Assembly (NCBI GenBank): GCA_036012755.1 | Contig: DASCPX010000137.1 | Span: 32,001 to 96,000, forward strand | DNA from: Myxococcota bacterium | Lineage (GTDB): Bacteria; Myxococcota_A; UBA796; CAJQPC01 | DNA: 64,000 nucleotides | Reading direction: 5' to 3' | Shown: piece by piece, positions 1 through 63,830 of the stretch | Position numbering within the stretch: position 1 is the stretch's first letter | Layout of the letters: each line of letters begins with the position of its first letter | Program-made: the position numbers and the translations under genes | The notes under the pieces: model-generated | Told to the model about the DNA's origin: nothing | What the model saw: the letters and a program-made list of their open reading frames with translations, nothing else | Databases searched by the model: none

Positions 1-748
1 GTCGGTTGGGGTCCTCGCGCTTGCCGGTGAGCCAGGGGAGGTCCTCGGTCGTCAGCGGGGGCAGGTCGCCGAACCAGGGCATGCCGGGGACCTCGGCTCG
101 CGAGTCCAGGTCGTAGTAGCGAAGGCGCAGGTTCTTTGCGATGTTCCAGGCGAGGTCGTTGCGCCGGATCAGCTCGGCGAGCTCCTCGTCGACGTCGTCG
201 TAGTACTGACCCCAGGACCCCTCCTCACGGAGCTCCGGCAACAGATCGGCTGCCTCGTGGGTCACGGCTCTGCACTCGTTGCGCAGGCGGATGACCTCTG
301 CGAGCTCCTCGATGTCGTCCTCGGGCACGAGCGGAAGGACCCAGGGGCGCTCCTCGGCGACCGACACCAGCTCCTGGGTGCGGCCACGGATGTTCCTCTC
401 GGTGAGCTGGTGGTGGAGCAGGCCCACGAGCTCGTCGGGGTCGAGCAGGCCCTCGAGGGTCTCTGTCTGCAGCAGCTCCTCCCACCTCCTCCCAGAGTCC
501 TGGAGTCGATGGAGGATCCTCCTGCGCTCCGCATCGTCGGTCCAGCGGGTCAGCGCCGAGCGAGCAACGGCCAGGCTCTGGCGCACGTAGCTGCGTTCTC
601 TGAGTACACCCCAGAGGGCCGCGCTTCGCCGAAGTCCGGGCCGGCCGTAGGCGAACCAGCACCAGCGCTTGCGAAGGCTCGCGAGCTCTCCGAGGTCCGC
701 CAGGGCCAGGCCGAGCTGGTGCTCGTGCTTGCGCGTCAGTCGCGCCAT
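1..748 (-). CDS. Hypothetical protein (MARLTRKHEHQLGLALAD...), 3' end runs off the window; last visible gene of the sigma-like operon
   Basis: My translation: ATG at 748 with GGAGG RBS, frame open to position 1, overlaps the stop of the upstream gene; not in the ORF track because it is truncated. Confidence 0.75.
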   Translation of the reverse strand, partial: MARLTRKHEHQLGLALADLGELASLRKRWCWFAYGRPGLRRSAALWGVLRERSYVRQSLAVARSALTRWTDDAERRRILHRLQDSGRRWEELLQTETLEGLLDPDELVGLLHHQLTERNIRGRTQELVSVAEERPWVLPLVPEDDIEELAEVIRLRNECRAVTHEAADLLPELREEGSWGQYYDDVDEELAELIRRNDLAWNIAKNLRLRYYDLDSRAEVPGMPWFGDLPPLTTEDLPWLTGKREDPNR

Positions 749-1749
749 GTGTCCTCCTGGTGGTAGACCTCGACGCCGGGCTCGGGGTGTCGTCCCAGCC
801 ACTTCGCGAAGTCGTCGATGGCGGCGGTCACTGCGAGGGGGTTGTAGGTGCGGCGGCGCTCATCGGCCTCGAGCCGCTTCTCCAGGGCTCCCACCCCCTG
901 GACGGGGCGGTAGCAGGTCCGGAGCTGGAAGAGGCGTCGCTTCTCCGGTGACAGGGACAGGGTGACGCCGTCGTCGTCGATGTAGCACTCGTTCTGGAGG
1001 CGACCGCGGGATCGCAACGAGTAGACGCAGTGTCGAGGTCGGAGCCCGGCTTGTTCCGCGGCTCGCCAGATCCGGTCTTCGTAGGCGGCGATGACAGCTG
1101 TCCCCGCCAGGCGGGCCTCGATGTGATCGAGCCAGCCTTCGATCCAGAGGCCGCGAGGTGGACTCTGCATGAAGCGGAAGGCCCTGCCCAGGGAGCGCCT
1201 CGCCGACTGGGACAGGCTGCGGTCGATCCAGGCGCAGAGTTCCATGAAGCGGGGGTCAGCAGCGGCCTCCTCGGTCAGGGCTCGGTCGCGGCGCAGAGCC
1301 TCTCGCACGTGCTCCCAGAGCCCTTCCCGGCAGAGCAGTCGCGCTCGCCTGCGCGCGGCCTTCGGCAGGCCAGCGGTGTTCCCCAGGATGTGCAAGCGCG
1401 CGTCATCGTTGGGGGATTCGTCCAGGAAGGCCAGGGTCACGTCGTCGAGGTCCAGCGGATGGCGGGCCAGCAGGACCTGGTGCGTGAAGAGCAGCTCGGG
1501 CTGTTGGCTGAGGGCCACGGCGCGCTCGTGGGCCTCCAGCACGTCTTGTGTGCAGGAGGTCCAGGTTCGCATCGTGTCGACCCAGCTCCGATCCAGCGTC
1601 GGCAGGTTCATCTCCAGGACCTCGCCCCAGTCCTCGCTGTCGCGCAGGACGTGCTTCAAGACGTGTCCCAGGAGCGCGGACCGGGGCATGGGCTGGACGT
1701 GGCGGAGGCTCAGCCGACCATCAGCCGTGCGACGGGGGAAGTCCTTCAC
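736..1749 (-). CDS. Hypothetical protein (~337 aa), possible effector
   Basis: GTG at 1749 overlaps the TGA of the upstream gene (GTGA) with GGGGAG RBS; protein-like sequence from VKDFPRR onward. Confidence 0.75.
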   Translation of the reverse strand: MKDFPRRTADGRLSLRHVQPMPRSALLGHVLKHVLRDSEDWGEVLEMNLPTLDRSWVDTMRTWTSCTQDVLEAHERAVALSQQPELLFTHQVLLARHPLDLDDVTLAFLDESPNDDARLHILGNTAGLPKAARRRARLLCREGLWEHVREALRRDRALTEEAAADPRFMELCAWIDRSLSQSARRSLGRAFRFMQSPPRGLWIEGWLDHIEARLAGTAVIAAYEDRIWRAAEQAGLRPRHCVYSLRSRGRLQNECYIDDDGVTLSLSPEKRRLFQLRTCYRPVQGVGALEKRLEADERRRTYNPLAVTAAIDDFAKWLGRHPEPGVEVYHQEDTWRD

Positions 1750-2273
1750 GAGGCTCCCCACCAGGCACCCTCTGCCTTCTTCGCGGCGAGGAGTCGTGGA
1801 TGTTCCAGGTCGAAACGCCGGGCCTGCAGTCGTCGGTCGAGGTCGTGGAAGCATGGAGCCGAGGCGCCGACATTGCGCAGCGCCACCGCCAGGCTCTCGA
1901 GCTCGTCTCGGCGCAGCAGGGCAGCGGGGTCCTCTGTATCCAGGGCCTCGGCTCGCTCGCCCACCTCGGCCACGAGGGCCGCGCGTTGCCGCTGGTCGAG
2001 GCGAGCCCACCAGTCGACGAGCTCGTTTCGCGAGGGCATGCCCTGGCCGGCGAGGAGTTGTCGCAGGCGGTCTCGGCGGCCCTCGGGGCTGGTCGCCCTG
2101 TCGAAGCGCTCGGCATGGCCCAGGGCCAGCAGGCCTCCGACCATGGTGCCTTCGGATAAAGCGACCTCGAGCTCGGCGTTGAGCCAGGTGGGAGCGTCCG
2201 GACAGAGCAGGTCCGGCCCGCGGAGTCCATTGGGCTCGGCGGGCTGGGAGTGCAGGCGGTCTATGTCAGTCAT
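1746..2273 (-). CDS. Hypothetical helical protein, candidate anti-sigma factor
   Basis: Coupled directly downstream of the sigma-like gene; RRDELES and C-terminal WWG motifs; function inferred from position only. Confidence 0.65.
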   Translation of the reverse strand: MTDIDRLHSQPAEPNGLRGPDLLCPDAPTWLNAELEVALSEGTMVGGLLALGHAERFDRATSPEGRRDRLRQLLAGQGMPSRNELVDWWARLDQRQRAALVAEVGERAEALDTEDPAALLRRDELESLAVALRNVGASAPCFHDLDRRLQARRFDLEHPRLLAAKKAEGAWWGAS

Positions 2274-3438
2274 TTCGGGTCTCCAGTACCCCGGCGACCA
2301 CGGCGTGGACCGTGTCGACCGGGTCTTCGTCTTCCTGCACGGACCGAGCCCGGAACCTGGTGTGGAGGAGGTAGGTGGCCAGCAGGCGCCAGGCCTGCTC
2401 TGCGTCGCGGTCCATGACGCGCTCTCGCCAGCTCGCCAGCACGGGCACCAGCTCTGCGCCTCCGGCGATCGCGAGCACGATCCGAGCTGCTTCGGTCCAG
2501 CGGAAGCCTCGTCGGACCAGCTCCAGCAGCAGGCTGGAGGGTGCCTCGACCAGGGGGGCCATGAGCAGCTCGATGGCGCTCTCCCGTGCCCGGCGGTCCG
2601 TGCGGTTCAGCGGGTCTCCCCGGCGCACGCGCTCGGAGAGGGCGGAGAGGGCTCTCCACTGACCCCTGGCCCGGGGGCGGGTCTTGGCAGCCTCTCGGAG
2701 GAAGGGGCCGATCAGCCAGGTCTCCACTGCGTCCTCGAGCGTGGTCGAGCCGAGGCTCGCCAGGATCTCCAGCTGCGCGCGCTCGTTCCAGCGGGCCTCG
2801 AGCTCTGAGTCGGGAGAGGAGGACGATGAGCAGGTCATGGCCTCCTCGCGCTCGCGGTCGGTGTGGTCCCGGGCGGCGATCTCCAGCGAGCCGGGGCCCG
2901 ACATCCTGTCGGTCAGCTGCTCGCTTCCGCCGCCCTTGGCTCGCCAGGCTCGGCTGAGCTCCTTCTGGATCGCGGTCCGGTAGTAGGACCGCAGGCGACC
3001 CGGGGTCGCTCCGTTGTGTCCGTGGCTGGTGGGGCAGCCCGGCACGCCGTCGAGGTAGCACGACGTCAGCAGCGCCTCGTGCGGCTCGCTGTCGTGGACG
3101 CAGGCCAGCACGTCGTCCAGGGGCACCTGGCGCAGTCCAGCGGAGGCCACGTCCTCGAGCACCTTGTCGCTCGGCCAGGCTTCTCCTTCCTTCGGCGTGG
3201 CGTTGGCCAGGCGGCCCAGGACCATCTGGCGCGTTCGGAAGAGGTTCAGCTGCGCCGTCTGGACGGCGTCCTCGAGGTCCACCCCCATGCTGATCGCTTC
3301 CGCCTTCAGCGAGGCTCCCAGCCTGCGGAACTCCGTGTCGATCGTCGCCCACGCTCCCAGGCGGTCGCGGCGGGCGTCGAAGTCGGGCTTCGACACCTCT
3401 CGCAGAGCGGTGACGAGGTCCAGGGTGGTTGCGTTCAA
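2266..3438 (-). CDS. Divergent ECF sigma-70-like factor with an insertion in region 2
   Basis: TTG start with GGAGG RBS; DLEDAVQTAQLNLFR and LRSYYRTAIQKELSRAWR resemble sigma region 2; GFRWTEAARIV resembles the region 4 HTH. Confidence 0.55.
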   Translation of the reverse strand: MNATTLDLVTALREVSKPDFDARRDRLGAWATIDTEFRRLGASLKAEAISMGVDLEDAVQTAQLNLFRTRQMVLGRLANATPKEGEAWPSDKVLEDVASAGLRQVPLDDVLACVHDSEPHEALLTSCYLDGVPGCPTSHGHNGATPGRLRSYYRTAIQKELSRAWRAKGGGSEQLTDRMSGPGSLEIAARDHTDREREEAMTCSSSSSPDSELEARWNERAQLEILASLGSTTLEDAVETWLIGPFLREAAKTRPRARGQWRALSALSERVRRGDPLNRTDRRARESAIELLMAPLVEAPSSLLLELVRRGFRWTEAARIVLAIAGGAELVPVLASWRERVMDRDAEQAWRLLATYLLHTRFRARSVQEDEDPVDTVHAVVAGVLETRND

Positions 3439-3455
3439 GACACCTCCGAGAGGGA

Positions 3456-3482
3456 TGAGGGGAGCCCTTCGTCCACCGGACA
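3456..3482 (-). promoter_or_regulatory. Putative ECF-type promoter P4 (TGTCCGGTG-N14-CTCA)
   Basis: Same 14-nt spacing as three other copies in the locus; immediately upstream of the RBS of 2266..3438. Confidence 0.5.
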
Positions 3483-3515
3483 GTTCGTGGGGACGAAGGG
3501 GGAGGCGTGACCTCC
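3465..3515. other. Perfect 10-bp inverted repeat CCCTTCGTCC/GGACGAAGGG plus a small GGAGG/CCTCC hairpin
   Basis: Arms at 3465-3474 and 3491-3500; second hairpin at 3501-3515. Confidence 0.6.
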
Positions 3516-3524
3516 GACCTCTCA

Positions 3525-3564
3525 GGGGGTGTGGGCTCCAGGATCCGGATGAAAAAAACTGGAC
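3525..3564 (-). promoter_or_regulatory. Putative ECF-type promoter P3 (CATCCGGAT-N14-CCCC), overlapping copy 1 of a 32-bp repeat
   Basis: 3533-3564 is 27/32 identical to 5966-5997. Confidence 0.55.
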
Positions 3565-3581
3565 TCAGCTGTGAACCCGCC

Positions 3582-5675
3582 TCAGTAGCCGATCTGTGAG
3601 GCCATCTCGGACAGGCCGTCGGCCTCGGACTCGACCGCCTCGATCCAGGCGGCGAGGACCTCGTCGATCCTGGTTGCGAATGACGGCAGGTCCCCTCGGT
3701 AGCGCCGCGCTGCCTGGAGGAAGCCCTTCTTCTTCTTCGGGCGGCGACCCAGCAGCAGGTCCGCTCGTGGATGGTGGGCCGCGACCTCCAGCCACGCGGC
3801 GAGGCCCACGAGCTCGAGCACGGTCGTGCTCGGGAGCTTCAAGAGGGCCGTGAGCGTGCGCTCCGCAGCCGCGGGGTCTCCGGTCTCGGCCTGCAGCGCC
3901 GCCAGCTGCCGGCGGATGCCATGGGCCGGGTAGCCGAGCCCGGCCTCTGTGACCCAGGAGTCCCCGGCGCAGCGAAGGCCGAGGGGGTCCCTGGCGATGC
4001 GGGTCAGGCGCAGGAAGTGCAGCAGCGCGAAGCCCCGGGGAAAGCCTGGCAGTCCCTCGATGTGGTCCAGGATCATCTCCCGGGTCGCGGTGGGCTCCAT
4101 GCCGATGCCTCGAGCCAACCAGGCTCCGGCCTCGTCGAGGTTTCCGGCCCAGGTCTCGAGCTGGGCCCGGTACTGGCACTGGCGCTGGATCTGCGTCGGC
4201 TCGCCGAACTCGGAGAGCGCCTGCTCGGAGAGCGCCCGGGCCTTCTCGAAGCGCGAGGGGTCCCGCAGGCCAGCGTACATCTCGGCCTGCAGCTGGGTCC
4301 CCAGGGCCTTCGCCCGCTGGGCGGAGTGCTGCACGACTCCCTCGACGAGATCCGCTGCGAAGGCGGCGAGTCCCTCGTGGTGGGCCTGGAGGTTGGACAT
4401 CGCCGTCGACGCCACGTCGTGCTCCAGGCAGTCCGTGTGGTGAACGGCCTTGGCGACCAGGGCCTCGCTCACGAGCTCGAGGTGCTCCTGCCGAGCCAGG
4501 ACCGAGGGCAACAGCGCCTCCACGCGGTGGACGTGGCCCCGTGCGTCCTCGAGGCGGCCGTCGTGGTTCGCCGCCGTCAGGCGCCAGCGGCACAGTGCCA
4601 GCTCGAAGGCTGGAAGGCTCGGGCCCTCGACCCGCCCTTGGAGGCCCTCGACCAGGGTCCGACTCAGCCAGGTGGCGACTCGCTCTCCGACCACCAGGTC
4701 CCGTTGGGTCTCGATGATCGTGTCGAGCCAGTGCTCGAGCTGCTGGAGCTGCACGGCCCTGGCGGGTCCGCCCATCTGTGCGAGTCGCGCCAGGGCAGGC
4801 TCGATTCGTCTTTGCGCTGCCCTGCGGAAGCCCTCGGTCGTGCTCTCGGCCACGAGCATCGGCGTGAGGAGCTGCAGCGCTCGGGCGACGGCCCCATCGG
4901 CCAGGGCCTCGTCGGCCTGCTCCACGAGCGGTCGCACCTCCAGGCTCCAGTCGGTCTCGCCGAAGGCCCTGCGCAGGGCCTCCTCTGCCCTGGGCTGTAA
5001 GGGGGAGAAGTCGTCGTGGCTGCCGTGGCTCAGGAAGTCGGCCAGCTGTAGGCCCCGGTCCTTCACAGAGCGGAGCTGCACGCGAACCGACCAGCCAGCG
5101 GCCTCTTCCGCCAGTCCGCGTCGGATTGCCGTGAAGCCCAGGTGCTCCCGCACTCGGCGCTGGAAGTCCTCTTCCTTCATCAGCTCGGGGATGTCGAGCT
5201 CCTCGTCGACGGTTCCGATGCGCACGTTCCCGCAGATCACTCGCAGCTCGACGCGCTCGGCTCCCTTGCGCCGGTGGTGATCCAGCAGGCGCACGACGAG
5301 CTCGGCGACGGCGTTGGTCTGGTTGGCGACCCGGTCTCCCCAGCTCACTCCTTCCAGGTTCGCCAGCCGCACCGCTCTCCAGCCTCGCACCTCCAGGGCC
5401 GCCTCCAGCTTCGGGAACGCGGCCTGGTAGCGGCCAGGATCCTTCTGCTTGAGGTCCACGGCGTGCGCGATCGCCGGGAGCTGGCCGCCGAGGATCTGTC
5501 GGAGCACCTGCTCGGCGTCGCGCTTGAGCTCGCCTGCCGGGGCGCAGACCCCCGCCAGCTGCGAGGGAAAGCGCCGCCGGGACAGATCGGCGCTCAGCTT
5601 TTCTCGAGGTTCCGTCGAGGTCTCTGAGAACTGTCCGCTCTCGTCGAGGAACAGCTCCAGCTTCAAGACGGCCAC
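3582..5675 (-). CDS. RNase H-like (DUF3800-type) domain fused to a TPR-like helical region
   Basis: N-terminal LFLDESG and LQLADFLS motifs; C-terminal Ala/Leu-rich helical repeats; GTG start 7 nt after TAGTCT. Confidence 0.65.
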   Translation of the reverse strand: MAVLKLELFLDESGQFSETSTEPREKLSADLSRRRFPSQLAGVCAPAGELKRDAEQVLRQILGGQLPAIAHAVDLKQKDPGRYQAAFPKLEAALEVRGWRAVRLANLEGVSWGDRVANQTNAVAELVVRLLDHHRRKGAERVELRVICGNVRIGTVDEELDIPELMKEEDFQRRVREHLGFTAIRRGLAEEAAGWSVRVQLRSVKDRGLQLADFLSHGSHDDFSPLQPRAEEALRRAFGETDWSLEVRPLVEQADEALADGAVARALQLLTPMLVAESTTEGFRRAAQRRIEPALARLAQMGGPARAVQLQQLEHWLDTIIETQRDLVVGERVATWLSRTLVEGLQGRVEGPSLPAFELALCRWRLTAANHDGRLEDARGHVHRVEALLPSVLARQEHLELVSEALVAKAVHHTDCLEHDVASTAMSNLQAHHEGLAAFAADLVEGVVQHSAQRAKALGTQLQAEMYAGLRDPSRFEKARALSEQALSEFGEPTQIQRQCQYRAQLETWAGNLDEAGAWLARGIGMEPTATREMILDHIEGLPGFPRGFALLHFLRLTRIARDPLGLRCAGDSWVTEAGLGYPAHGIRRQLAALQAETGDPAAAERTLTALLKLPSTTVLELVGLAAWLEVAAHHPRADLLLGRRPKKKKGFLQAARRYRGDLPSFATRIDEVLAAWIEAVESEADGLSEMASQIGY

Positions 5676-5704
5676 GGGGTGGAGACTACCGCCCCGCCCT
5701 TCGC

Positions 5705-5902
5705 TCAGGGGTTCACGTCGATGTCGAAACATCCGGGCTGCTCCGGGCACTCGTCCCAGTTCTCCGTGTCCCCGTGGAGGGGGCGGAGGGCGCCGAGGAT
5801 GACTCCGTCCTCTTCCATGGCTCGCGCGGCCTCGACCAGGTCCAGCTGGCGGTAGCCGTTGGCGCGGTTGAGGCGGAGCACGATCTTGGATTCGAGGTCC
5901 AT
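5705..5902 (-). CDS. Small hypothetical protein (65 aa, MDLESKIVLRLN...)
   Basis: Strong AAGGAG RBS and an upstream promoter-like motif. Confidence 0.65.
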   Translation of the reverse strand: MDLESKIVLRLNRANGYRQLDLVEAARAMEEDGVILGALRPLHGDTENWDECPEQPGCFDIDVNP

Positions 5903-5957
5903 GTCTTCTCCTTTTGGGTGTGTCGGCAGCGGCCCATCCGTTGCTTCCACCCTTTCT

Positions 5958-5997
5958 GGAGGAGCGGGCTCCGGGATCCGGACAAAGAAATCTGGAC
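5958..5997 (-). promoter_or_regulatory. Putative ECF-type promoter P2 (TGTCCGGAT-N14-CTCC), overlapping copy 2 of a 32-bp repeat
   Basis: Motif and spacing match P1, P3 and P4. Confidence 0.55.
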
Positions 5998-6018
5998 GAC
6001 CCGTGTTTTCATTGGCCG

Positions 6019-6843
6019 GTGCCTGTCGATCTGGCCACGCTCGCGCCGCTGTTGCGGGGGACCTATGGGGGTCGAGATGCGGCCGCGGCGGTGATCTGGG
6101 AGCACGGCCTCCCCACGATCCAGCGCATCGCGAGGAGGCTGCACCAGAAGAGCCCTGGTTTCTTCTCGCGGCATGTCGGCAACGCCGAGGCCCTGGGCAT
6201 GGAAGCGGTGTCGGAGCTCATCCGCCGGGCCGAGGAGGAGCAGGGCCTGCCGCTCGACAACAACTGGGCTCGCGGCGACAGCTACCTCGCGCGCGCGACC
6301 CTGGACACCATCCGGGCCCTCGCGAAGCGGTACCGCCTCCAGGAAAAGCGGGAGTCCAGCGCGGCTGGCGAGCCCGAGCTCGAGCTCGACCGACCCTGGT
6401 TCGACCGCGTGGGCACGCACGATCGGTTGCGGTCGAGGCTGCACACCGACGAGCCCTTGAGCCGGGACCGGGCCCTGGGCCTGCTGGTCGAGGTCCTTGC
6501 CGCAGTGAAGGGCTTCAAGGCCCTGGCATACCTGCTGGACCGCTTCCCCCCTGGCGTGGATCGCCCCCTGGTCTCGCGGGCCTCGTCGGACTCCACCGCC
6601 ACCCGGGGCCTGGCCCGCCCGGAGCCCGAGACCTGGGAGCTCCTGGTGGACTGGCGCGAGCGCCATGGGCGGCTCACCGTCTTCGCCGCAAACCGAGGTG
6701 TCGCCTGGGTCCTTCGCACATCCGATCAGACGAACGCCGAGACCTTCTACCTCAAGCACCGGGCGGCCATGACCACCGCCATGGACGCGGTCCTGTGCTG
6801 GCGCAGGGACGTCGAGGCCCGGCTTGGGGAGGCGCTGTCGTGA
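6019..6843 (+). CDS. Divergent ECF sigma-70-like factor
   Basis: LPTIQRIARRL...NAEALGMEAVSELIRR...SYLARATLDTIRALAKR resembles region 2; VAWVLRTSDQTNAETFY resembles the region 4 HTH; start uncertain (GTG 6019). Confidence 0.55.
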   Translation: MPVDLATLAPLLRGTYGGRDAAAAVIWEHGLPTIQRIARRLHQKSPGFFSRHVGNAEALGMEAVSELIRRAEEEQGLPLDNNWARGDSYLARATLDTIRALAKRYRLQEKRESSAAGEPELELDRPWFDRVGTHDRLRSRLHTDEPLSRDRALGLLVEVLAAVKGFKALAYLLDRFPPGVDRPLVSRASSDSTATRGLARPEPETWELLVDWRERHGRLTVFAANRGVAWVLRTSDQTNAETFYLKHRAAMTTAMDAVLCWRRDVEARLGEALS

Positions 6844-6848
6844 TCTTC

Positions 6849-6875
6849 TGTCCGGATTCGCCGGCTCGGTGCTCC
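6849..6875 (+). promoter_or_regulatory. Putative ECF-type promoter P1 (TGTCCGGAT-N14-CTCC)
   Basis: Lies between the sigma-like gene and the candidate anti-sigma gene, upstream of an AGGAGG RBS. Confidence 0.55.
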
Positions 6876-6895
6876 TACGTCACCAGGAGGCTCCG

Positions 6896-7858
6896 ATGAT
6901 CGACCGAGCAGACCTCGTCCAGCGTCTTCGCAGCCGCGGCGCCCTGGCGCTGCAGGGCCTGCGTGGCGCGCCGACCGTCGAAGCCCTGCGCGTCGCCGGC
7001 GTGGCCGAGCTCCTCGGCGAGGCCGACTGTCCGAGCGATCTGCGCACCCTCCACGCCGAGCTCAGGGCCGCGCCCCTGCCCGACCGCCCTGCCCTGATGC
7101 CCTTGAGCTTCCAGCTTCGGGACGGGGATCTTCGTGAGGACGACCTGCTCGACTTCCTGGTGCTCAGCGCCCTCGCGCCGCGCCTGCCTCCCTGGGCAGC
7201 GGAGCGAGCCCAGGACGCGCTCGACGACGTGCTCATCGAGGCCGAGGACCACAGGGATCTGCTCGCCAGGGCAGAGGAGCTCCGCGTCCAGCTCGGGCCT
7301 GCCTCGGGCACGCCGCTGGCTGACCTGCTGCAGGACCTCGACGCCCTGCGGCGAGACACGGCGCTGGTGCCCACGGAGCTGCTCGCCGCGGCGTTCCAGC
7401 CTCGAGGTCTCGGCGCCTGGGCTGCCGTGCTGCGTGCCTCGATGGCGGACCTCGCAGAGGAGTTGCGCGAGCGGGCCGCCGAGTTCGCCGACGAGCTCGC
7501 CCAGCTCGGCGCTCAGCCCCAGCTCGTCACCGCGGACGAAGGCCTCGGTCTGCCCAGCGCTGACGTGCTCGTCTACTGCGATGGGGACAACGAGGTCTTC
7601 CTCGCGTGCTCCCGCCAGCGGCTCTACCTGGAGGTCCGGGGTCCCTGGGCTGCCGATCTCACGGTGCGGATCGGCGTGATCACCCTTGACCAGGTCCCGC
7701 CCTTGTCGCCCGACGACGAGGACGTCGTGACCTGGGCGCTGCCAGATGACCCGGGAACCCCGATGGCTCCTGACATCGGCCACGGTGGAGCTTCCACGCA
7801 CAAGCTCTTCCTCGACATCCCGGACGAGGGCAGCATCGCGCTCCCGATCCGCCTGTGA
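6896..7858 (+). CDS. Hypothetical protein, candidate anti-sigma factor or protease substrate
   Basis: ATG 6896 with AGGAGG RBS; helical N-terminus and beta-rich C-terminus; sits between the sigma-like and protease genes. Confidence 0.7.
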   Translation: MIDRADLVQRLRSRGALALQGLRGAPTVEALRVAGVAELLGEADCPSDLRTLHAELRAAPLPDRPALMPLSFQLRDGDLREDDLLDFLVLSALAPRLPPWAAERAQDALDDVLIEAEDHRDLLARAEELRVQLGPASGTPLADLLQDLDALRRDTALVPTELLAAAFQPRGLGAWAAVLRASMADLAEELRERAAEFADELAQLGAQPQLVTADEGLGLPSADVLVYCDGDNEVFLACSRQRLYLEVRGPWAADLTVRIGVITLDQVPPLSPDDEDVVTWALPDDPGTPMAPDIGHGGASTHKLFLDIPDEGSIALPIRL

Positions 7859-9423
7859 ACCCGACCGAGCTCGAGCGCTGGTGGAGACATGCCCCCGGTG
7901 CCTGTCTGCGCGTCGCCGAGAAGCTGGCCTGCGGCAACTCCAGTGAGCGCGCCCGGGGCCGGCACCTGAGCTCTCGGATCGCGCTGCTGGACCTCAGGCC
8001 TCGAGTCGGTGTGGCCTGGTTCCCGGTCGTCCACCAGCCCGGTGGGGCCGTCGAGGGCTTCCTCGTCCAGGTCGTCGTCGGCGGCGGTCGGCCGATAGAG
8101 GGCGCAGAAGCCCTGGCCGCCTGGTTCGGGGGCCTCCTCCCCGAAGCCGAGGCCGAGGTCCGCGCACTCTCCATCGGCATCGAGGGACTGCCCGAGGGCT
8201 TCGAGGTGCGAGGTCACTCCTTGCAACTCGCGGCCGCGGAGGCCCTCGTCTCCCACTTCCTGCAGCGGCCTGCTGCCTCGGCCCGAGTCAGCTCGGGCGG
8301 CCTGGGAGCTGACTTCTGCGCGCTGTCCCCCATCGACCAGGTCGCGGTGAAGCGCCGCATCTGCGCCCTGGAGGCTCCCGGAGCGGTAGCCACGGTCGTC
8401 GAGGCGTCCGCCCACCTGGAGCTCTCTTCGGCCTTCGGGAGCGCCTGGCGGGGAGAGCTCGCGGCGGCGCTCGGGGCCTCTGCGAGCGCCCTGTCTCGCG
8501 ACGCCCGTCGGGCCTACCTCGATAGGAAATACCCACGGGCCGAGAGGCTCGCGGAGCTCGCCCTGGACACGGAGGATCTACCCCTCGCCCGCTGGGTGCG
8601 CGGGGCCTGCAGGGTCCACCGGGGCGAGCAGGGACTCGAGGATCTCGAGCTGGCCTTCGAGGCGCTCCGCCACAGCGAAGAGGAGGCCTGGCTCGGCGAG
8701 GAGCTCGAGGCCTTCCTGGGCATCGCGCTGTTGGACGAGCTGCGCCCCGTCGAGGCGAGGCCCCGGCTGGAGCGGGCGCTCGCGCGCCTCGAGGACGCTC
8801 GACGAGACCGGCGCTTCAGGGAGGTCGCGGTCCAGGTCGCCGGCACCCTCCGACGAGTCCTGCAGCTCCTGGGCGAGGTCGAGGACGCCCTGCAGGTCCA
8901 CCAGACCTGGGTCCTCGGCCATGCCCACCAGGACCACGAGCACAGCCGCGCCCTGATCGAGAGCGCCGCCCTGGAGCTCGCCCTGGAGCGACCCGGTGTC
9001 GAGCGGACCCTGGAGCTGGCGGAGCGACAGCTCGCTCACTGTTCCTCTGACGAGCGAGCGGTCACCCGTCGGTACATCGAGGTGCAGCGGGTCCGAGCCG
9101 GGCTCTCCAGCTCGGCTCGCAAGGGCGAGCCGCCGGACTGGTCGGACTTCCCCCAGCCCCTGGAGGCCCTGGCCGGGCTCTGTACCGAGGAGCTGGAGAG
9201 CTGGCTCGACGACTACGTCGATCTCGCCACCCTTGGATGCGCCATGCACCTGGTATTGCTCGGCGCAGCAGCCCGATCGGGGCCCGTTCGCCAGGCTCCC
9301 GAGCTCGTGATCTGCTTCAGGGAGCGGACGGGCCCGGAGCGGCTCGGCGCAGCAGCATGGAGCGCGCTCGCTGCGCTGGAGGCCGGAGATTGCGCCCCCT
9401 GGAGGCGGCTGGCCCCCTACTGA
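7855..9423 (+). CDS. Lon-type (S16-like) protease domain fused to TPR-like repeats
   Basis: RGHSLQLAAAEALVS...SSGGL...SPIDQVAVK matches the Lon C-domain pattern; Ser122-Lys166 spacing is 44 (43 in E. coli Lon); GTGA coupling. Confidence 0.7.
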   Translation: MNPTELERWWRHAPGACLRVAEKLACGNSSERARGRHLSSRIALLDLRPRVGVAWFPVVHQPGGAVEGFLVQVVVGGGRPIEGAEALAAWFGGLLPEAEAEVRALSIGIEGLPEGFEVRGHSLQLAAAEALVSHFLQRPAASARVSSGGLGADFCALSPIDQVAVKRRICALEAPGAVATVVEASAHLELSSAFGSAWRGELAAALGASASALSRDARRAYLDRKYPRAERLAELALDTEDLPLARWVRGACRVHRGEQGLEDLELAFEALRHSEEEAWLGEELEAFLGIALLDELRPVEARPRLERALARLEDARRDRRFREVAVQVAGTLRRVLQLLGEVEDALQVHQTWVLGHAHQDHEHSRALIESAALELALERPGVERTLELAERQLAHCSSDERAVTRRYIEVQRVRAGLSSSARKGEPPDWSDFPQPLEALAGLCTEELESWLDDYVDLATLGCAMHLVLLGAAARSGPVRQAPELVICFRERTGPERLGAAAWSALAALEAGDCAPWRRLAPY

Positions 9424-11010
9424 TCAGGGCTCGAGCTCGCCCGCCTCGATGGTCCAGGAGGCCAACTCGACGCCGTCCACGTCGTGCAGGGTGGCCACCA
9501 GCTGATCGCTGGAGACGACCATGCCGATGAAGAACACGCCCTCGTCCTCGCAGACCGTCCAGCTCTCCTCCTGGCAGGGACTGTTCCAGGTCGCCAGCGG
9601 AGACGAGGTCAGCTCTGGCAGGTCGTAGCTGGCTCCGGGCAGCAGCCGGAACTCCGAGCGGTGGACGTCGCCCGAGAGCAGGACCAGCCCGGGCACATCC
9701 GCCGTGGCCTCCAGCAGCGCAGTCCAGTCCTCTGGGAAGTTGGCCCAGGAGTCCTCCGAGCCTTCCTGGGTGAACTGGCTGCCGCTGGCGACGAGCTTCC
9801 AGGTCGCGGAGCTGTCGTGGAGCGCCCCGACGAGCCAGGCGGTCTGCTCCCCGCCGAGCATGCTGTCGTCCTCGCCGCGGTGGCTGCGGTCGTCGAGGAG
9901 GAAGAACTCGACCTCTCCGACGACGTGGCGGGAGGGGATGGTGTTGGCCCAGTACTCGTCGAAGACGCGCTTGGCGACGTCGCCTCCGGGGTCGCTCGCG
10001 TCGGTGTTGTTGCCGACGTAGTCGTGGTCGTCCCAGGTCGCGACGATCGAGGTCTCGGCCAGCATCTCCCGGCGCTCGTCCCGCTCGTGGGCCCAGCGGT
10101 ACCACTGACGTAGAGCACCAAGATCGTTCGTGTTTGCGTAGTGGTTGTCCCCGATGAACAGGAAGACGTCAGGCTCGTACGCGCGAATCGCCGAGAAGAT
10201 GGGCTGGTCGTCGTCCTTGCTGCAGGAGCCGAAGGCGATGCGCAGCTGCTCCGCTGGCTCCTCCACGGTCCACGGTCCCAGCGTCTGTCCCTCGATCTCC
10301 AGGGAGTACTCGAAGGGAGGGGCGATGCCCTCGAGCACGACCTCCTCCGCGAAGTCGTCCGCGGCCAGGGGGTAGCCGATGTGTCGCAGGCGCCCGTCCA
10401 CGCTGAGCTTCACCTGTCGGGTCGCGTCCGTGCGGTACCAGATCCGCACGCCCTCCGCGGTGACCGGGCCGACCAGGGGGCCGTGGGTGAGGGGGGTCTC
10501 CCAGCAGCCCAGGCAGTCGAGCACGGCGGCCTCTGAGAGGCTGGCGACCTCGTCCTCGTCGTCGGTGCCGAGCTTCACCTCGTAGTCGCTCTTGCAGTGG
10601 ATGGGCTCGCCGTCGAAGCTCACCGCGATGCATCCGGGCCGGTACTGGTCGCCGCCGTCGTCGATCGACCAGGTGAGATCCTGGACATCCGCCCGGGACA
10701 GCCCGAAGTCCTCTTCGACGTGCACGTCGACGATGCCGTGCTCGTTGTCGTTCCAGTCGGGCTTCGCCAGCTCCAGGCAGTGCTCCTCGCCGAGGCAGAG
10801 GGTGAGCACGTCGTCGGTGCCGCTGTACTCGCTGGTGTCAGAGGGCAGCATCGTCACGTGGAGGACATCGATGACCTCTGGGAACTCGGGCATGCCGGGG
10901 TCGGGCACGCCCTCGCTGTCGGGGCTGTCGCCCTCGCTCTCGACCACGACGCTCTCGTCGGGGGGCACGCCCGAGGGGGCACAGGTGCAGGACCAGAACA
11001 ACGCGAGCAT
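9424..11010 (-). CDS. Alkaline phosphatase D (PhoD-like) lipoprotein
   Basis: FGSC, GDNHY, WDDHD, LSGDVH motifs; MLALFWSC lipobox. Confidence 0.9.
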   Translation of the reverse strand: MLALFWSCTCAPSGVPPDESVVVESEGDSPDSEGVPDPGMPEFPEVIDVLHVTMLPSDTSEYSGTDDVLTLCLGEEHCLELAKPDWNDNEHGIVDVHVEEDFGLSRADVQDLTWSIDDGGDQYRPGCIAVSFDGEPIHCKSDYEVKLGTDDEDEVASLSEAAVLDCLGCWETPLTHGPLVGPVTAEGVRIWYRTDATRQVKLSVDGRLRHIGYPLAADDFAEEVVLEGIAPPFEYSLEIEGQTLGPWTVEEPAEQLRIAFGSCSKDDDQPIFSAIRAYEPDVFLFIGDNHYANTNDLGALRQWYRWAHERDERREMLAETSIVATWDDHDYVGNNTDASDPGGDVAKRVFDEYWANTIPSRHVVGEVEFFLLDDRSHRGEDDSMLGGEQTAWLVGALHDSSATWKLVASGSQFTQEGSEDSWANFPEDWTALLEATADVPGLVLLSGDVHRSEFRLLPGASYDLPELTSSPLATWNSPCQEESWTVCEDEGVFFIGMVVSSDQLVATLHDVDGVELASWTIEAGELEP

Positions 11011-56935: not shown

Positions 56936-58009
56936 ATGCTGCACGTCGCCCTGTTGCTGATCTCCTGGCTCCTCTCTGGGGTGGCTCTGGCCGAGGAGGA
57001 TCCGGGGATCCTCAAGATCAACGCGAACGTCGTCGGGGCGGAGATCCGCATCGATCACGAGCCTGTAGGAGAGACTCCGCTCACCCGCTACATGCCCCCC
57101 GGGCACTACTCGGTTCGCGTCGCCGCGGACGGCTACAACCCCTTCGTCCAGCGGGTCACCGTCTATCCGGGCAGGCGTACCGATCTCGGTGCCACGCTGA
57201 TTCGCGGTGGGAGCACCGTCGAGTTCGTCGTCGAGCCCGGAGGCGCCAACATCGAGCTCAACGGCCAGGACACGGGCTTCCGGACCCCTACCCGCATCCC
57301 GAAGGTGTCGGCTGGGACATATCAGTACAAGGTCACCAAGCCTGGCTACGAGCCGGTCGAGGGGACCTTCTCCCTCTCCGACGGTGGCAACGCCGTGGTG
57401 GTGGGCTCGCTGGAGTCTTCGGCTGGCCGCTTCTCGATCGCCTCGCGACCCGAGGGCGCGAGCGTCTACCTTGACGGCGAGATGGTTGGAGTGACCCCCG
57501 TCGACCTCACCGGCATCCACCCTGGCACCCACCAGGTGGGGCTGGCGCATCCGGACCACCCCCTGGTCGTTCGCGAGGTCGACACCTCTGACGGCAGCAA
57601 GGGTGTGGTGGACGCCAAGCTCAAGGACGGTGGCGGCAAGCTCGTCGTCGTGACCGGCTCGCCCAGCGGCACGGTCTCCCTGGATGGCGTACCCGTGGGC
57701 ACTGGCAAGAAGGTGAAGGCCCGCGCCGCTCGGGGCTCCTACGAGGTCGTCGTGGGTGGTACCGGCGCCGAGCCGGTGTCGCTGGAGGTCACCGTCCCCC
57801 TGTCGGGCTCCCTCTACTACGAAGCCGCGCTCGCTCCGAGCGGAGGAATCTCCACGCTCACGGAGAAGACGCCACCTCTGAAGCGTCCCCTCACCTGGGT
57901 CGCCATCGGCGGAGGTGCGGCCCTCGTCGGCGGGGGTGCCGTCGTCACCGCGGTGGTGCTGTCCCCCGAACCCGATCCCGTGGGCGACGTCGTCCTCCAG
58001 CTCCCCTGA
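56936..58009 (+). CDS. PEGA domain protein
   Basis: Repeated P.GA.V.LDG..VG.TP motifs; signal peptide and C-terminal TM. Confidence 0.9.
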   Translation: MLHVALLLISWLLSGVALAEEDPGILKINANVVGAEIRIDHEPVGETPLTRYMPPGHYSVRVAADGYNPFVQRVTVYPGRRTDLGATLIRGGSTVEFVVEPGGANIELNGQDTGFRTPTRIPKVSAGTYQYKVTKPGYEPVEGTFSLSDGGNAVVVGSLESSAGRFSIASRPEGASVYLDGEMVGVTPVDLTGIHPGTHQVGLAHPDHPLVVREVDTSDGSKGVVDAKLKDGGGKLVVVTGSPSGTVSLDGVPVGTGKKVKARAARGSYEVVVGGTGAEPVSLEVTVPLSGSLYYEAALAPSGGISTLTEKTPPLKRPLTWVAIGGGAALVGGGAVVTAVVLSPEPDPVGDVVLQLP

Positions 58010-58011
58010 TC

Positions 58012-61000
58012 ATGCTCCTCCTGCTCGCCTGTACCGGCAACCAGCCAGAGAAGACCTCGATCCTCGTGACCGTGGTCGGCCCTGATCTCGCGAGCGTCGC
58101 GACGGAAGCGGAGAGCCTGGTCCTCGTGGGCGACCCTGACGTGCCCTTCGTCGACGGGGACGGCTACGCCATCGAGGGCGAGTTCGGGAGCTTCGTCTTC
58201 GTAGACGCCATCGATGACGACGAGGAGCTCGAGCTCACCCACACGCGCGGGTTCAGCGCGGACCTCCCGACCATCGAGCTGCTCGCGGGGGCCAACCGCC
58301 CGGAGCTCTCCTTCACTGCCTGGGCGGAGACCGAGGGTGTCGGCATCGTGGCCATGGCCGACACGGTCGGCCCGGTCTCCTTCGTCGACGACGAGGTCGT
58401 CGAGGTCACAGTGACCGGGCTGGTGCTGCTCGACGTGCCCCTTTCCGGTTGCACCGACGAGCTCGACAACGACGATGACGGCTGGGTCGACGCGGACGAC
58501 TCCGACTGCGACGAGGGGATCACGGAGGAAGGACACGGCACCACCGAGTGCAACGACGACAAGGACAACGACGCCGACGGCGCCGTCGACTCAGAGGACG
58601 TCGACTGCGACGACGCAGGCGATGACACGGAGGCCAACGGCTGCACCGACGAGCTCGACAACGACGGCGACGGCTGGATCGACGACGAGGACTGGGAGTG
58701 CCTCGACGGCACCGAAGAAGACGGCGTCTACAGCGACGAGTACGGCTGCTCCAACGGCGAAGACGACGACCTCGACGGGGACACCGACTTCAACGACACG
58801 GACTGCTCCGACGGCTTCGACGACGAGTACCCGGAGCTGTGCGACAACGGCGAGGACGACGACGGCGACGGCTGGTTCGACGCGGACGACCCGGACTGCG
58901 ACACCTCCGACGAGGAGTCCGGCTTCGGCACGTGGCTCTGCAACGACGGCGAGGACAACGACCTCGACGATCTCATCGACGCGGACGACCCGAGCTGCCG
59001 CAACGCCTTCGACATGACCGAGCTCGACCAGTGCGAGGACGGCATCGACAACGACGGGGACCTCTGGACGGACACGGACGACCTCGGCTGCGACGGGGAC
59101 GAGCACGGGGAGTCCGAGGGGTCGGGCTTCGAGGACGAGGCGGAGTGCTCCGACGGCATCGACAACGACGGGGACGGCTACATCGACGGCCTCGACGAGG
59201 AGTGCAACTCTCCCCTGGACGACGCAGAGGACTCCGACTGCGCGGACGAGCTCGACAACGACGGCGACGGCTGGACCGACGCTGACGACCCGGACTGCGA
59301 CACCGACGGCGCCGAGCTCGGCTTCACGGACGCTGCCTGCAACGATTTTTCCGACAACGACGGCGACGGGGACACCGACTCCGACGACGACGACTGCACC
59401 TCGGCCACGGACGACGACGAGACCGACCACTGTGACGACGAGCTCGACAACGACGGCGACGGGTGGGAGGACGGCGACGACCCGGACTGCGCGAGCGGGA
59501 CCGAGGAGAGCGGCTTCGGCTCGAACGACTGCAACGACGGCGCCGACAACGACGGGGACCTCCTCATCGACGTCGAGGACAGCTACTGCACGGCAGCGAG
59601 CGGCACCGCGGAGGCGGCGGAGTGCGACAACGGCGACGACGACGACGGTGACGGCTGGACCGACGACGACGATCCGGACTGCACCAGCGGCTCGACCGAG
59701 GCCGGCTACGGCTCCACCGAGTGCAACGACAGCGCCGACAACGACTCCGACGGCTACTTCGACGCCGACGACCCCGACTGCGCCTCCGCAGAGGACGACT
59801 ACGAGGAGGAGTACGACTGCTCCGACGGCGAGGACAACGACGGCGACGGCTGGACCGACACAGACGATCCCGCCTGCGGCTCCAGTGACACCGGCACCTC
59901 CGAGTCCCCCGCGAGCTCGGCCTACGACTGCAACGACGGCGACGACAACGACAGCGACGGCTACACCGACGCCGACGACCTGGGCTGCGCCGACGGCTTC
60001 GACACCGACGAGTCCGACGAGCCGATCACCCACTGCAACGACGAGCTCGACAACGACTCGGATGGCTACACCGACGCCGACGATCCCGACTGCTACGACC
60101 GGAGCGCGACGAGCGAGAGCGGCTACGGCAGCACCGAGTGCAACGACGGCTCGGACAACGACTCGGATGGCTACACCGACGCCGACGACGACGACTGCGA
60201 GGCGGCTGACGACGACAACGAGGACACCGCGAGCGACGACTGCAGCGACGGCTACGACGACGACGGCGACGGCTGGGTGGACGACGACGACCCGGACTGC
60301 TCGATCGGCACGAGCGAGTCCGGCACGGGCTCGGCGGCCTGCAACGACGGCACCGACAACGACGGCGACGGCGACACCGACGCGGACGACGGCGAGTGCT
60401 CCTCTGCGACTGACACCGCCGAGTCGGGTGACTGCAACGACGGGAGCGACAACGACGGCGACGGCTGGACCGACTCGGCGGATCCGGAGTGCTCCTCTGG
60501 CCTGAGCGAAGACGGCGTGGTGGGCTCCACCGAGTGCTCGGACCTCGCCGACAACGACGGGGACCTCCTCGTCGACTACGAGGACGGCGGCTGCGCGGAC
60601 GCCTACGACGACGTCGAGGACGACGCGGCGGGTGACTGCGAGGACTCGGCGGACGGTGACGGCGACGGCTGGGTCGACGCCGACGACCTCGACTGCCTGA
60701 CCGATGGCAGCGAGCTGAGCACCACCTCGTATGCCTGCAACGATGGCAGCGACAACGACGGTGACGGCGACACGGACGCCGCCGACAGCGACTGCCTCGT
60801 CGCCTGGCAGGACTTCGAAGAGATCGACGCCTCCTGCGAGGACGGCGAGGACGACGACGGTGACGGCTGGGTGGACGATGACGACCCGGACTGCTCCGTG
60901 GACGGCGAGGAGATCGGCTACCTGCCGCTGGACTGCAACGACGGAGCTGACGGCGACGGCGACGGCGACACCGACAGCGACGACAGCGACTGCGACGATG

Positions 61001-62262: not shown

Positions 62263-62484
62263 CGGGACCTCGCCGCGCGGAGGTGGTCGCCCTGGGCGCG
62301 GAGTACATCAACCACCGGCCCGGGCTCATCCGCTCCCAGGACGGCAAGCGAGACGTGGCGCGCGGTGTCCGGCTCGACCTGCACCTCATCAAGGCGCCTT
62401 CGGGACGACGCTGTGACCCCCTCGTTCCAAGCCCCACCGTCCTGGTGCTCCGAAGCCTCAGCGTGCCACGACTGCGACTGTCCA

Positions 62485-62903
62485 TCACAGGGTGCCCGCT
62501 TGGAGCCGGTCGTGGTCGGTCGGGAGCAGGAAGCCGGGGTTGCTGCGAAGCGCGCGTCCGAGCAGCGGAGCGTCCTCGTCCACGAGCTCAATGGACCGAT
62601 GGCCCTCCTGGTACTGGCGCAAGTACCGGCGTCGGACCTTCATCACCCGCTCATCACGCCGCACGCGCTCGAGGACGTTGGCTACAGCGTCTCGCTGGTC
62701 GGGCGGGACACGCGCTGTGGACCGTAGTTCCATCGAGGGAAGGTCCAGCTCGAACCAATCGCGTCGCGGTACTGGAGCCAGAACGGGCTGGGGCGCTCGG
62801 CATTGCGGTGATCCGCTGGGCCGTGGTTCAACGACGCTCGCCCCTTCTTCAAGACGTGGGTCTGCCAGCCCCAGGGGCGATCCGGCGGGTCAACGTGCCT
62901 CAT
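62485..62903 (-). pseudogene. Partner of the ATPase (HNH-type family), internally deleted and frameshifted near 62760
   Basis: N-part MRHVDPP...PFW.QYRDA jumps to DWFELDLPS...DERV..R...Y..G...APLL in another frame. Confidence 0.6.
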
Positions 62904-63830
62904 CGTTCCCCCGACCGGCCCGACGCCCGGGGCGATAGGCCAGGGTCCACTGTGGCCAGAAATCGTCGTGGCCTGGCAGGGTGTGCTTCAGAGCATCGTG
63001 GACTCGCTCGACCAGCGGGCGACGGAGGTAGGCGTCGTCTGCGATGGCTTCCAGCCAGCCCATCTCGGGCAGCGCTGGCGCGGCGTCGGAGGGCAGTTCG
63101 TCGAGGCGCAGGTACAGCGCGCCGAGGTTGTCTTCGGCATCGCCAGGGCGGTCCGCCATGAAGTCCATCGCGGCGGCGATCGCCAGATCTGCCTCGCGCG
63201 AGCGGCCCCCCACGTGCCCGAAGACCTCTGAGGCGAGCCAGTTGGACACATCGCCCTCCTTGCCGAACGGAAGCTCGTTTACGCGGACCAGCCGGCCGTC
63301 GCGCTCCAACACGAACAGGTCGTCGCGGTCCTCACGGAACACGCTTTCCAGGGAGGCGAGGACCATTGGCGAGTGGGTGGTCACGAAGAATTGGGCCGAG
63401 ACCTTCGAGGCGATGACGCTGACGGCCTTGTGGACCGCAGGCAGGAGCATCCGCTGCCACTTGGGGTGGAGGTGGAGCTCGACTTCGTCTATCAACACCA
63501 CCATGTCGGTGGTGGGCGGGCGGTTTGTGAGCTTCGCGGCGTTCGTATGCTCGGTCCAGGCCCACACCAACAGGTAGGCCAGGCCGAGTATGCGCTTCGT
63601 TCCCGCAGACGCGAGGGTGACCGGGACCTCGCCGTAGGGGAGCGCGAGCGTGGGGATGTCCACGCGGTCATCGACTCGCACCCTGGTCGGGCCTCCCGGC
63701 ACGAGCGGCTCGCCGGGCTCCGACAGATGTTCCAACACCCGACATAGGGACTGGAACTCCGGGGCGCCTGTGCCCTGCCAGCTCACCCAGTCCTCGAGGA
63801 GCCCTCGGCTCAGCGTTCGAGGACGACCAG
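62890..63830 (-). pseudogene. ABC/AAA_21-type ATPase, N-terminally truncated
   Basis: ASAG..RI signature, LIDEVELHLHPKWQR, TTHSP; no Walker A; abuts a MopE gene fragment. Confidence 0.75.

Follow-up and report, generated by a model that had tools for sequence, protein, structure and literature searches.

A conserved sigma factor, X and Lon-TPR protease cassette, a probable switch at the head of a Myxococcota defence island

The left end of a 64,000-nucleotide stretch of a Myxococcota bacterium genome (contig DASCPX010000137.1, positions 32,001 to 96,000 of the forward strand, G000:C137:32001-96000; hereafter the window) encodes, on the + strand, a sigma factor-like protein (sigma-1, 6019-6843, 274 amino acids), a protein here called X (6896-7858, 320 amino acids) and a Lon-type protease with TPR helices (7855-9423, 522 amino acids). 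I consider it fairly likely that these three proteins form a soluble protease/anti-sigma/sigma switch, and that this switch controls a defence island. The cassette is the control head of a larger inserted island of ∼28.6 kb, most of which lies to the left of the window. An earlier account, made from the letters alone (the sequence-only reading), had placed nine genes in window 1-9423, and the list of open reading frames (ORFs) of the window bears out all nine. Scanned singly, none of the nine proteins scores above cut-off in Pfam, PADLOC, NCBIfam or PHROGs, which for PADLOC (no match for nine out of nine) agrees with the claim of a new system; the basis of all assignments given here is therefore the alignment of relatives. 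Window 1-9792 is covered without interruption, at 13 base differences, by a contig that stems from a different study, and the locus is thus not an assembly artefact. Outside the source, the best matching datasets are marine metagenomes, and no RNA dataset is among the listed holders of the locus sequence.

The sigma fold proposed for the product of the first gene is supported by profile, model and structure alignments. An 80-sequence profile matches the ECF (extracytoplasmic function) sigma factors SigL, SigE, CnrH and SigK in the PDB, with a best E-value of 3.7e-6. The AlphaFold2 model, with a predicted local distance difference test score (pLDDT) of 90.5, aligns to sigma2 structures over residues 1-124 and to sigma4 structures over residues 149-274, at middling Z-scores of 5-6.7, and Foldseek returned no match to it at E ≤ 0.001. 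From profile and model, sigma2 is placed at residues ∼1-116 and sigma4 at residues 149-274, the latter with an insertion of ∼60 amino acids; sigma-1 has these two domains only, as an ECF (group 4) sigma factor requires. Searched at E ≤ 1e-10, a set of 1.84 billion representatives contains 108 clusters of its family.

Alignment and profile searches likewise confirmed a Lon protease domain with TPR helices in the third protein. It consists of a Lon (S16) domain devoid of an AAA+ ATPase, then TPR-like helices, and a conserved C-terminal PY; S122, already singled out in the sequence-only reading, and K166 are invariant in all 11 aligned proteins, as are P521 and Y522. The protease profile matches Lon protease domains (E 1.8e-6) and TPR proteins, and one homologue carries the NCBI name S16 family serine protease. 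No SAVED or CARF domain was found in it with Pfam or PADLOC. Among the related loci (numbered L001 onwards), L083 and L099 have the protease domain joined to a different C-terminal region, which suggests that the sensor part is exchangeable. A protease pattern scan of genome_contigs and a protease-alignment scan of viral_contigs, both of which detect close relatives only, gave no relatives.

X is probably the soluble anti-sigma factor and the substrate of the protease. In its predicted model (pLDDT 70.7), a helical domain (residues 1-153) is followed by a low-confidence linker (155-222) and an Ig-like beta-sandwich (223-320), for which matches were obtained only at Z ≤ 6.2. Fold searches gave generic beta-sandwich and helical matches only; CalpT and Csx30, from known protease-sigma systems considered below, are not among the matches listed, which excludes nothing. 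No transmembrane segment is seen in X, whose hydropathy over 19 residues peaks at 1.18, and there is no CHAT, zf-HC2 or DUF1822 match in Pfam. The linker carries an alanine-rich motif (LAFAAS, PLFAAS, PMAAAA and similar) in 19 aligned X proteins, of which that of L023 deviates, and in three loci (L071, L073, L101) X is fused to the protease. In L083, L099, L100 and L101, X has no significant profile match and was assigned from where it lies and how it aligns.

That the genes for sigma factor, X and protease belong together was upheld by a survey of neighbourhoods. The protease matches in 14 of 182 genomes of the class, this one included; at the 13 other protease loci, the full sigma-X-protease order is found in eight, another two contain X but are interrupted by a contig end, and three are without either partner, one of these being a weak TPR match only. 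Searches with alignments of the sigma factor and of a further family, Y, added 18 loci, giving 32 loci fetched, and the cassette is complete in 16 of these (L018-L023, L026, L028, L070-L073, L075, L083, L099, L101), L026 being counted although its protease is cut by a contig end. Because the genomes are related and were found with the very features counted, these numbers show conservation, not frequency. The broader proposal, that all nine genes form one system, did not survive this survey: sigma-(Y)-X-Lon alone is conserved, and the six other genes were not found beside any relative cassette, with the exception of a 715-amino-acid LDESG-TPR protein just before the sigma factor of L099, a remote match to the RNase H-like-TPR gene of the window (pairwise E 0.017).

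Elsewhere the neighbours of the cassette are often of defence type, including CARF-HEPN proteins, kinases with a HEPN-like domain, NACHT/Avs2-like proteins, HipA and NYN. On the proposed explanation, the cassette moves between genomes and connects to varied sets of defence genes, the set at this locus being a local one. One such neighbour is a CARF-HEPN protein with a C-terminal STIV B116-like domain (L099:8738-10387), encoded in the operon strand of the cassette with an exact copy, 54 nucleotides (nt) upstream, of the promoter-like site described below. Several kinase/FHA proteins near the cassette share an N-terminal helical domain (L018:4534-6276, L019:10795-12987, L022:13000-15249, L101:5702-8458, L024:283-2124), which from its motif I take to be HEPN-like. 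Two proteases of the family stand beside PLD-helicase or DUF4011 helicase-nuclease genes (L025:9216-10844, L027:9323-10594).

In 13 loci the gene for Y (∼185 amino acids) is found between those for the sigma factor and X, with H19 and H23 invariant. Its HxxxH and C-terminal TAY motifs presumably recall those of BECR-type RNase toxins, a label that no search confirmed. In Y-bearing loci, the promoter-like site before X falls within the 3′ end of Y, which accounts for the conserved CPP...SV peptide of that protein. This arrangement would suit a toxin-release (abortive infection) module, in which the protease cuts X, then mainly an antitoxin or scaffold for Y, and the sigma factor resets the system; at this locus Y would have moved to the second operon, where a 337-amino-acid gene is Y-like. 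As the promoter of X lies inside the end of Y, the sigma factor would make more X and protease but not more Y, as expected of an antidote. However, Y has no place in six related cassettes (L026, L028, L070, L072, L075, L079) nor in the triad here, it gave no match in Pfam, PADLOC, PHROGs or the PDB, and many modules of the island have promoter sites in front of them, an indication that the regulon is wider. I regard toxin release as an unlikely explanation of the cassette as a whole; it is compatible with a sigma switch, as a second arm.

The repeated bipartite motif reported upstream of these units proved real. TGTCCG-N17-CTC[CA] occurs in four exact copies in window 1-9500 (+5632, +6849, -5984, -3482) against 0.09 expected from the genome-wide rate, an optimistic figure, and to that extent a point against the switch, as the -10 letters CTC were picked after the sites had been seen. 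Independent support comes from the relatives, where the 17-nt spacing recurs, and from the position of the sites before gene starts. In 26 related loci, 25 of the 235 TGTCCG cases have CGTC exactly 17 nt further on, whereas the runner-up 4-mer at this distance has 6. In 16 of 20 loci, a site with at most one mismatch lies no more than 200 nt from X (13 of these sites are exact; distance taken from the end of Y for L102), versus 27 of 2400 random windows. Of the four loci that lack it, L071, L073 and L075 have an exact site ahead of the sigma factor instead. By its form, TGTCCG-N17-CGTC is an ECF-like promoter, which the sigma factor of the cassette would recognise.

At the locus itself, the motif precedes the cassette, the RNase H-like arm and the second operon, as had been stated. 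The site at 6849..6875 (+, CTCC), 47 nt before X, is orthologous to the one kept before X in relatives, but its -10 reads CTCC where theirs reads CGTC. A second site (5632..5658, +, CTCC) lies 387 nt before sigma-1, antisense within the start of the RNase H-like gene; it possibly mediates autoregulation of sigma-1, and the three loci named above also have their exact site upstream of sigma. On the - strand, the site at 5958..5984 (CTCC) lies 82 nt before the genes for the 65-amino-acid and RNase H-like-TPR proteins, and that at 3456..3482 (CTCA) heads a ∼22-kb operon, 44 nt ahead of the second sigma-like gene. A degenerate copy, CATCCG-N17-CCCC (3525..3551, -), is contained in a 59-nt stretch that is 75% identical to 5939-5997.

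The - strand operon that begins at 3438 continues beyond the window edge to ∼19.1 kb left of the window, with almost all genes overlapping. Its cargo there comprises an HExxH peptidase-like gene (motif spotted by eye, no Pfam match), a 491-amino-acid unknown and two MoxR modules, one with a 1520-amino-acid vWA-like protein and the other with DUF2201. Further genes encode an LRV-repeat protein, a pair of BrxD-like ATPases (E 4e-29 and 2e-18), a BrxHI-like helicase (E 8e-74) and an ATPase of SMC-like type, which matches LmuB (E 9e-20). In a genome of the same genus, the flanking sequences are ∼2.7 kb apart, versus ∼32 kb at this locus; the nine-gene region is therefore the right-hand 9.4 kb of an inserted ∼28.6-kb island, and the view of it as a stand-alone circuit had to be given up, since the unit heads this island. 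The right border is a PhoD-like phosphatase gene (window 9424-11010, -), whose stop abuts that of the protease. A comparison with the flanks in genome G134 was dropped because the second match was on the wrong side of phoD, and the ends of the island showed no direct repeat of 12 nt.

Across the island, six exact TGTCCG-N17-CTC sites are present against 0.72 expected (0-3 at other spacings), five of them at most 120 nt from a gene start. Four of them precede sigma-1, X, the 65-amino-acid gene and the second sigma-like gene; the other two are to the left of the window, before the 491-amino-acid/MoxR-vWA and the MoxR-DUF2201 genes. A seventh, with one mismatch, lies in the gap before the SMC-like gene. 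Five of the six island gaps of at least 29 nt contain a site. In another genome (G013), a TGTCCG-N17-CGTC site fronts a MoxR-DUF2201 operon that ends in a sigma factor of the sigma-1 family.

Some further observations concern the island and the lone relatives of sigma-1. The genes for two BrxD-like ATPases, the BrxHI-like helicase and the SMC-like ATPase (L001:226-18990, G000:C137 12867-31993, left of the window) are not accompanied by a BREX core and stand behind two MoxR modules; they may constitute an undescribed defence system of their own. A 264-amino-acid gene of this stretch has a homologue in the L019 island. The MoxR-DUF2201 operon of G013 (L074, G013:C72 19500-36873) also includes a SAM-synthetase-like gene, and no X or Lon was found near the sigma factor that closes it. 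Beside other lone sigma factors there is a gene without annotation, of 140-160 amino acids with a W...HPELxWAW look (L076:8830-9276, L077:537-1016 and 5839-6258, L078:2002-2439), three copies of which carry the promoter; it is possibly a second kind of target or regulator. In L079:1297-4934, a tandem pair of long (380-390 amino acids) sigma factors of the family is followed by an X-like gene with the promoter, with no protease beside it.

No CRISPR or CBASS genes adjoin the locus, as inspection of the left-flank DNA and family scans confirmed. This bears on another explanation, that the cassette is an orphaned accessory module of a type III CRISPR system, in need of a cyclic-oligoadenylate signal or a Cas complex. 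Type III genes do adjoin two of the 16 complete cassettes, L020 (cmr/cas10/Csx1) and L099 (the CARF-HEPN gene with its own site), and one lone sigma factor (L077) is beside a CARF gene. Nonetheless, the protease has no SAVED or CARF match in Pfam or PADLOC, no cas1 was found in the genome, which is 96% complete, and its only Cas10-palm match (on C91) was rejected as a GGEEF diguanylate cyclase. Four of five cassette genomes tested, one of them single-contig, likewise had no Cas10 palm at E ≤ 1e-10. A crude repeat scan returned seven candidates, none with CRISPR-like regular spacing, and in a SAVED search of this genome the control itself matched nowhere. I consider a CRISPR origin highly improbable.

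A number of findings weigh against a defence switch of the kind proposed. Neither by sequence nor by fold does X significantly match a solved anti-sigma factor, and its linker here reads QLVTAD (A213), with T-A-D where most relatives have A-A. Five complete cassettes (L026, L028, L070, L072, L073) stand among genes without a defence look. In seven loci (L074, L076-L078, L080-L082), some of them close to a contig end, a sigma factor of the family has no X or Lon found nearby, and in two (L025, L027) the protease stands with neither sigma nor X. Sigma-1 lacks the W, N and D of region 2.4 that are kept in 59, 46 and 65 of 80 family members, and of the 11 coding differences that separate strains, 10 alter a residue, four of these in sigma-1.

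The loss of the region-2.4 residues may explain the changed -10, although L101 and L102, with an unusual region 2.4, still have CGTC sites; or it may mean decay. In that case, sigma-1 would no longer recognise DNA, and the CTC promoters would be read by the second sigma-like protein or by nothing; the altered linker, the triad without Y and the mostly residue-changing strain differences would all agree with this. On the other hand, all frames are open in the independent contig, the catalytic dyad is intact, and the orthologous site before X turned to CTC together with six other island sites, a joint change that argues for selection on a working sigma factor. Decay is in my view very unlikely.

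The cassettes without defence neighbours would also be expected if the switch answered general stress, such as DNA or protein damage, and the island merely used it by position. TGTCCG is half of a palindrome, CGGWCA-N5-TGWCCG, which in this genome stands immediately ahead of recA-, ssb- and recC-like genes, so named from a look at their N-termini. The palindromes before ssb and recC also fit TGTCCG-N17-CTC, having CTC 17 nt on. But none of the island sites is a palindrome, counts show no enrichment of the palindrome (10 at spacer 5; 0-16 at other spacers), the 220 nt before lexA gave no copy of it, and neighbours at other loci are often defence-type. A general stress response appears distinctly unlikely. 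The palindrome (G000 positions C149:32839, C18:582, C31:12054, C19:26930, C18:30536, C85:30537, C176:1207, C14:51963), which has a few unknown genes among those it precedes, is in itself a candidate SOS box of this lineage.

Returning to the protease/anti-sigma/sigma switch, the following sequence of events can be proposed. At rest, sigma-1 would be held by the helical domain of X, the Ig-like domain of which would be docked on the Lon-TPR protease. The TPR region would read a signal, probably a sign of infection, and activate the Ser122-Lys166 dyad, upon which X would be cut within its alanine-rich linker, the motif itself being observed. By analogy to CalpT, the new C-terminus would mark the rest of X for housekeeping proteases, and sigma-1 would be freed to fire the TGTCCG-N17-CTC(N) promoters, for which motif and positions are observed. 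The predicted regulon would include the gene for sigma-1 itself (amplification), those for X and protease (reset) and that for the RNase H-like-TPR protein. In the 22-kb operon it would take in module after module: the second sigma-like and Y-like genes, MoxR-vWA, MoxR-DUF2201 with BrxD/helicase, and the SMC-like ATPase. Folds, dyad, gene order and island context are observed features of the locus, while binding, cleavage, degron, promoter recognition, trigger and defence role are what I infer from them.

The six divergent genes of the window are all on the - strand. The first (5705-5902, 65 amino acids) has a good codon score and a ribosome-binding site; no family or homologue was found for it in Pfam, PADLOC, NCBIfam, PHROGs or the loci of relatives, and the idea that it is a fragment of Y failed in comparison. 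It is followed by the RNase H-like-TPR gene (3582-5675, 697 amino acids, with an alternative start up to 5750), which had been taken for a nuclease. The LDESG and QLxD motifs (D11, E12, D213), invariant in three of three homologues, and a TPR_19 match (E 2e-4) speak for this assignment, but the DUF3800 matches (E 0.31 and 0.16) are below cut-off, and no PDB match was found; the protein is a plausible candidate sensor-nuclease, judged by its motifs. The two other homologues found in genomes have no cassette beside them, and a cyanobacterial homologue (L103:7231-11884) is 1.5 kb from a Csx3-domain gene. A pattern scan of metagenome_contigs with an RNase H-like homologue, which detects close relatives only, gave none.

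The last four - strand genes overlap one another by 4-13 nt. The first of these (2266-3438, 390 amino acids) had been read as a second sigma factor. A three-block sigma test ranks it 3 of 6017 ORFs, and 2 of 1500 shuffles reach its score, although the blocks were chosen after the likeness had been seen and the RNase H-like protein scores nearly as high; the nearest named atlas cluster is Sigma70_r2, at 31%. No relatives were within reach, no profile or PDB match was significant, and membership in the long (380-430 amino acids) sigma subfamily failed. On balance I hold it somewhat more likely than not that it is a second, divergent sigma-like protein. The next product (1746-2273, 175 amino acids) is helical, with no family found in Pfam, PADLOC, NCBIfam or PHROGs; it was considered as X-like but does not match X.

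The Y-like gene (736-1749, 337 amino acids) is probably a distant, enlarged member of family Y. It is the top match, among 67,868 ORFs, of a Y profile built without it (E 0.15), and in a Y block test it comes top of 8662, with 0 of 5000 shuffles as high; the shared features are the HxxxH helix and a C-terminal GVxL...T[AC]YRP. It is a candidate toxin or RNase, the latter role suggested by motifs akin to those of BECR type. No usable atlas match was obtained, and a genome_contigs pattern scan, again limited to close relatives, gave none. The final gene (1-748, 255 amino acids) ends 20 bases left of the window, and its product used as a query found no homologue in the 181 other genomes of the class. 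Far to the right of the cassette, the region around window 58000-63000 shows a strong positive AT skew (0.23-0.38), probably a repetitive gene.

A more ambitious reading, which I hold to be doubtful, takes the Lon-TPR protein as a stand-alone cytoplasmic pattern-recognition protease, the master switch of whole defence islands, working without a nucleotide messenger. Sigma factor and promoter would co-evolve (CGTC to CTC), giving each island a private channel. As part of the same tentative reading, the 22-kb operon would contain a nested second cassette, made of the second sigma factor, the Y-like toxin, an anti-sigma-like gene and the HExxH peptidase in repeated gene order, and thereby a two-tier proteolytic cascade. 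The sole basis for the latter is that the order second sigma, 175 amino acids, Y-like, 255 amino acids, HExxH echoes that of sigma-Y-X-protease.

How costly multi-system defence islands are kept silent until attack is largely an open question. The cassette would be a soluble, CRISPR-independent counterpart of CalpL and Csx29, which answer type III signals, and of DdvA, a membrane receptor. What it offers is a dyad for catalysis, a cut site and a regulon that are both predicted, a consensus promoter recurring in many genomes, and a -10 that varies naturally. For MoxR-vWA and BrxD-helicase modules it would open a first way into their regulation, and it would yield an orthogonal protease-gated sigma/promoter pair.

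A literature search, which left supplements and most subscription papers outside its reach, found no description of a Lon-TPR/anti-sigma/sigma cassette, although big supplementary tables of defence neighbourhoods may contain one; none is given in passages of PMC12642450, PMC11229360, PMC8195603 and PMC12839542. By analogy, the cassette would work like CalpL-CalpT-CalpS, Csx29-Csx30-sigma and DdvS-DdvA, but it fails their defining features, namely SAVED, CHAT, a membrane anti-sigma factor and cas linkage. As regards the island cargo, BREX type 2 has a core of BrxC, the PglX methyltransferase and PglZ (PMC12839542), whereas only the two BrxD-like proteins and one BrxHI-like protein match among 14 island proteins scanned, and this core is absent.

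The promoter form is close to that of ECF41, TGTCACA-n16-CGTC, but ECF41 is controlled by a fused C-terminal extension, without anti-sigma factor or protease (PMC3426412), while sigma-1 carries an insertion inside sigma4. An EACC2-caspase with an ECF sigma factor and DUF1822, predicted bioinformatically in CRISPR-independent conflict-system neighbourhoods (PMC8195603), similarly combines protease, ECF sigma factor and partner outside CRISPR; the protease here is of Lon rather than caspase-like type, and X has no DUF1822 match. In the type III-E system Csx29-Csx30-Csx31-CASP-sigma, Csx29 is a CHAT protease activated by Cas7-11 (PMC10028731). Shared with it are a TPR-bearing protease, a cleavable anti-sigma factor (predicted here), sigma sites within the own locus and a conserved fourth gene, Csx31 there and Y here; unlike in that system, the protease is Lon-type, and PADLOC revealed no sequence link to any of its four genes.

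Closer in its protease is CalpL-CalpT-CalpS, a type III CRISPR trio of Lon-SAVED protease, anti-sigma factor and ECF sigma factor (PMC11417357; 10.1101/2024.05.08.593097), in which CalpT is cut within LAAA, exposing the LAA degron needed to free its sigma factor (10.1101/2024.05.08.593097). Like CalpL, the protease has a Lon domain without ATPase and a Ser-Lys dyad, and like CalpT, X is a soluble two-domain partner of 33-36 kDa with an alanine-rich linker, adjacent to an ECF-like sigma factor. However, TPR helices replace SAVED, CalpL being only a weak match of the protease profile (E 0.14). CalpT has a MazF-like N-domain and a DUF2080 C-domain, whereas the modelled N-domain of X is all helical. 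The modelled C-domain of X is a beta-sandwich; CalpT is not among the matches listed, but the two C-domains may still be linked. The sigma4 insertion, the own promoter and island regulon, and the mostly absent cas genes nearby set the cassette further apart, no type III cyclase having been found beside the locus or in the genome and type III genes lying beside only the two of 16 relatives.

In its reach, the cassette most recalls DdvS-DdvA of Myxococcus xanthus, where an ECF sigma factor released by proteolysis drives several promoters of a defence island, and TPR is the presumed sensor (PMC11506125). Several predicted sigma promoters are likewise spread across the island here, as seven sites at module starts, known from sequence alone. 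DdvA is a membrane anti-sigma factor, a single chain that carries both a zinc domain and a TPR-CHAT part in the periplasm, whereas the anti-sigma factor and protease of the cassette would be soluble and are usually separate, the protease being Lon-type. The DdvS island holds CBASS and CRISPR; the island described here holds MoxR-vWA, BrxD-helicase and SMC genes.

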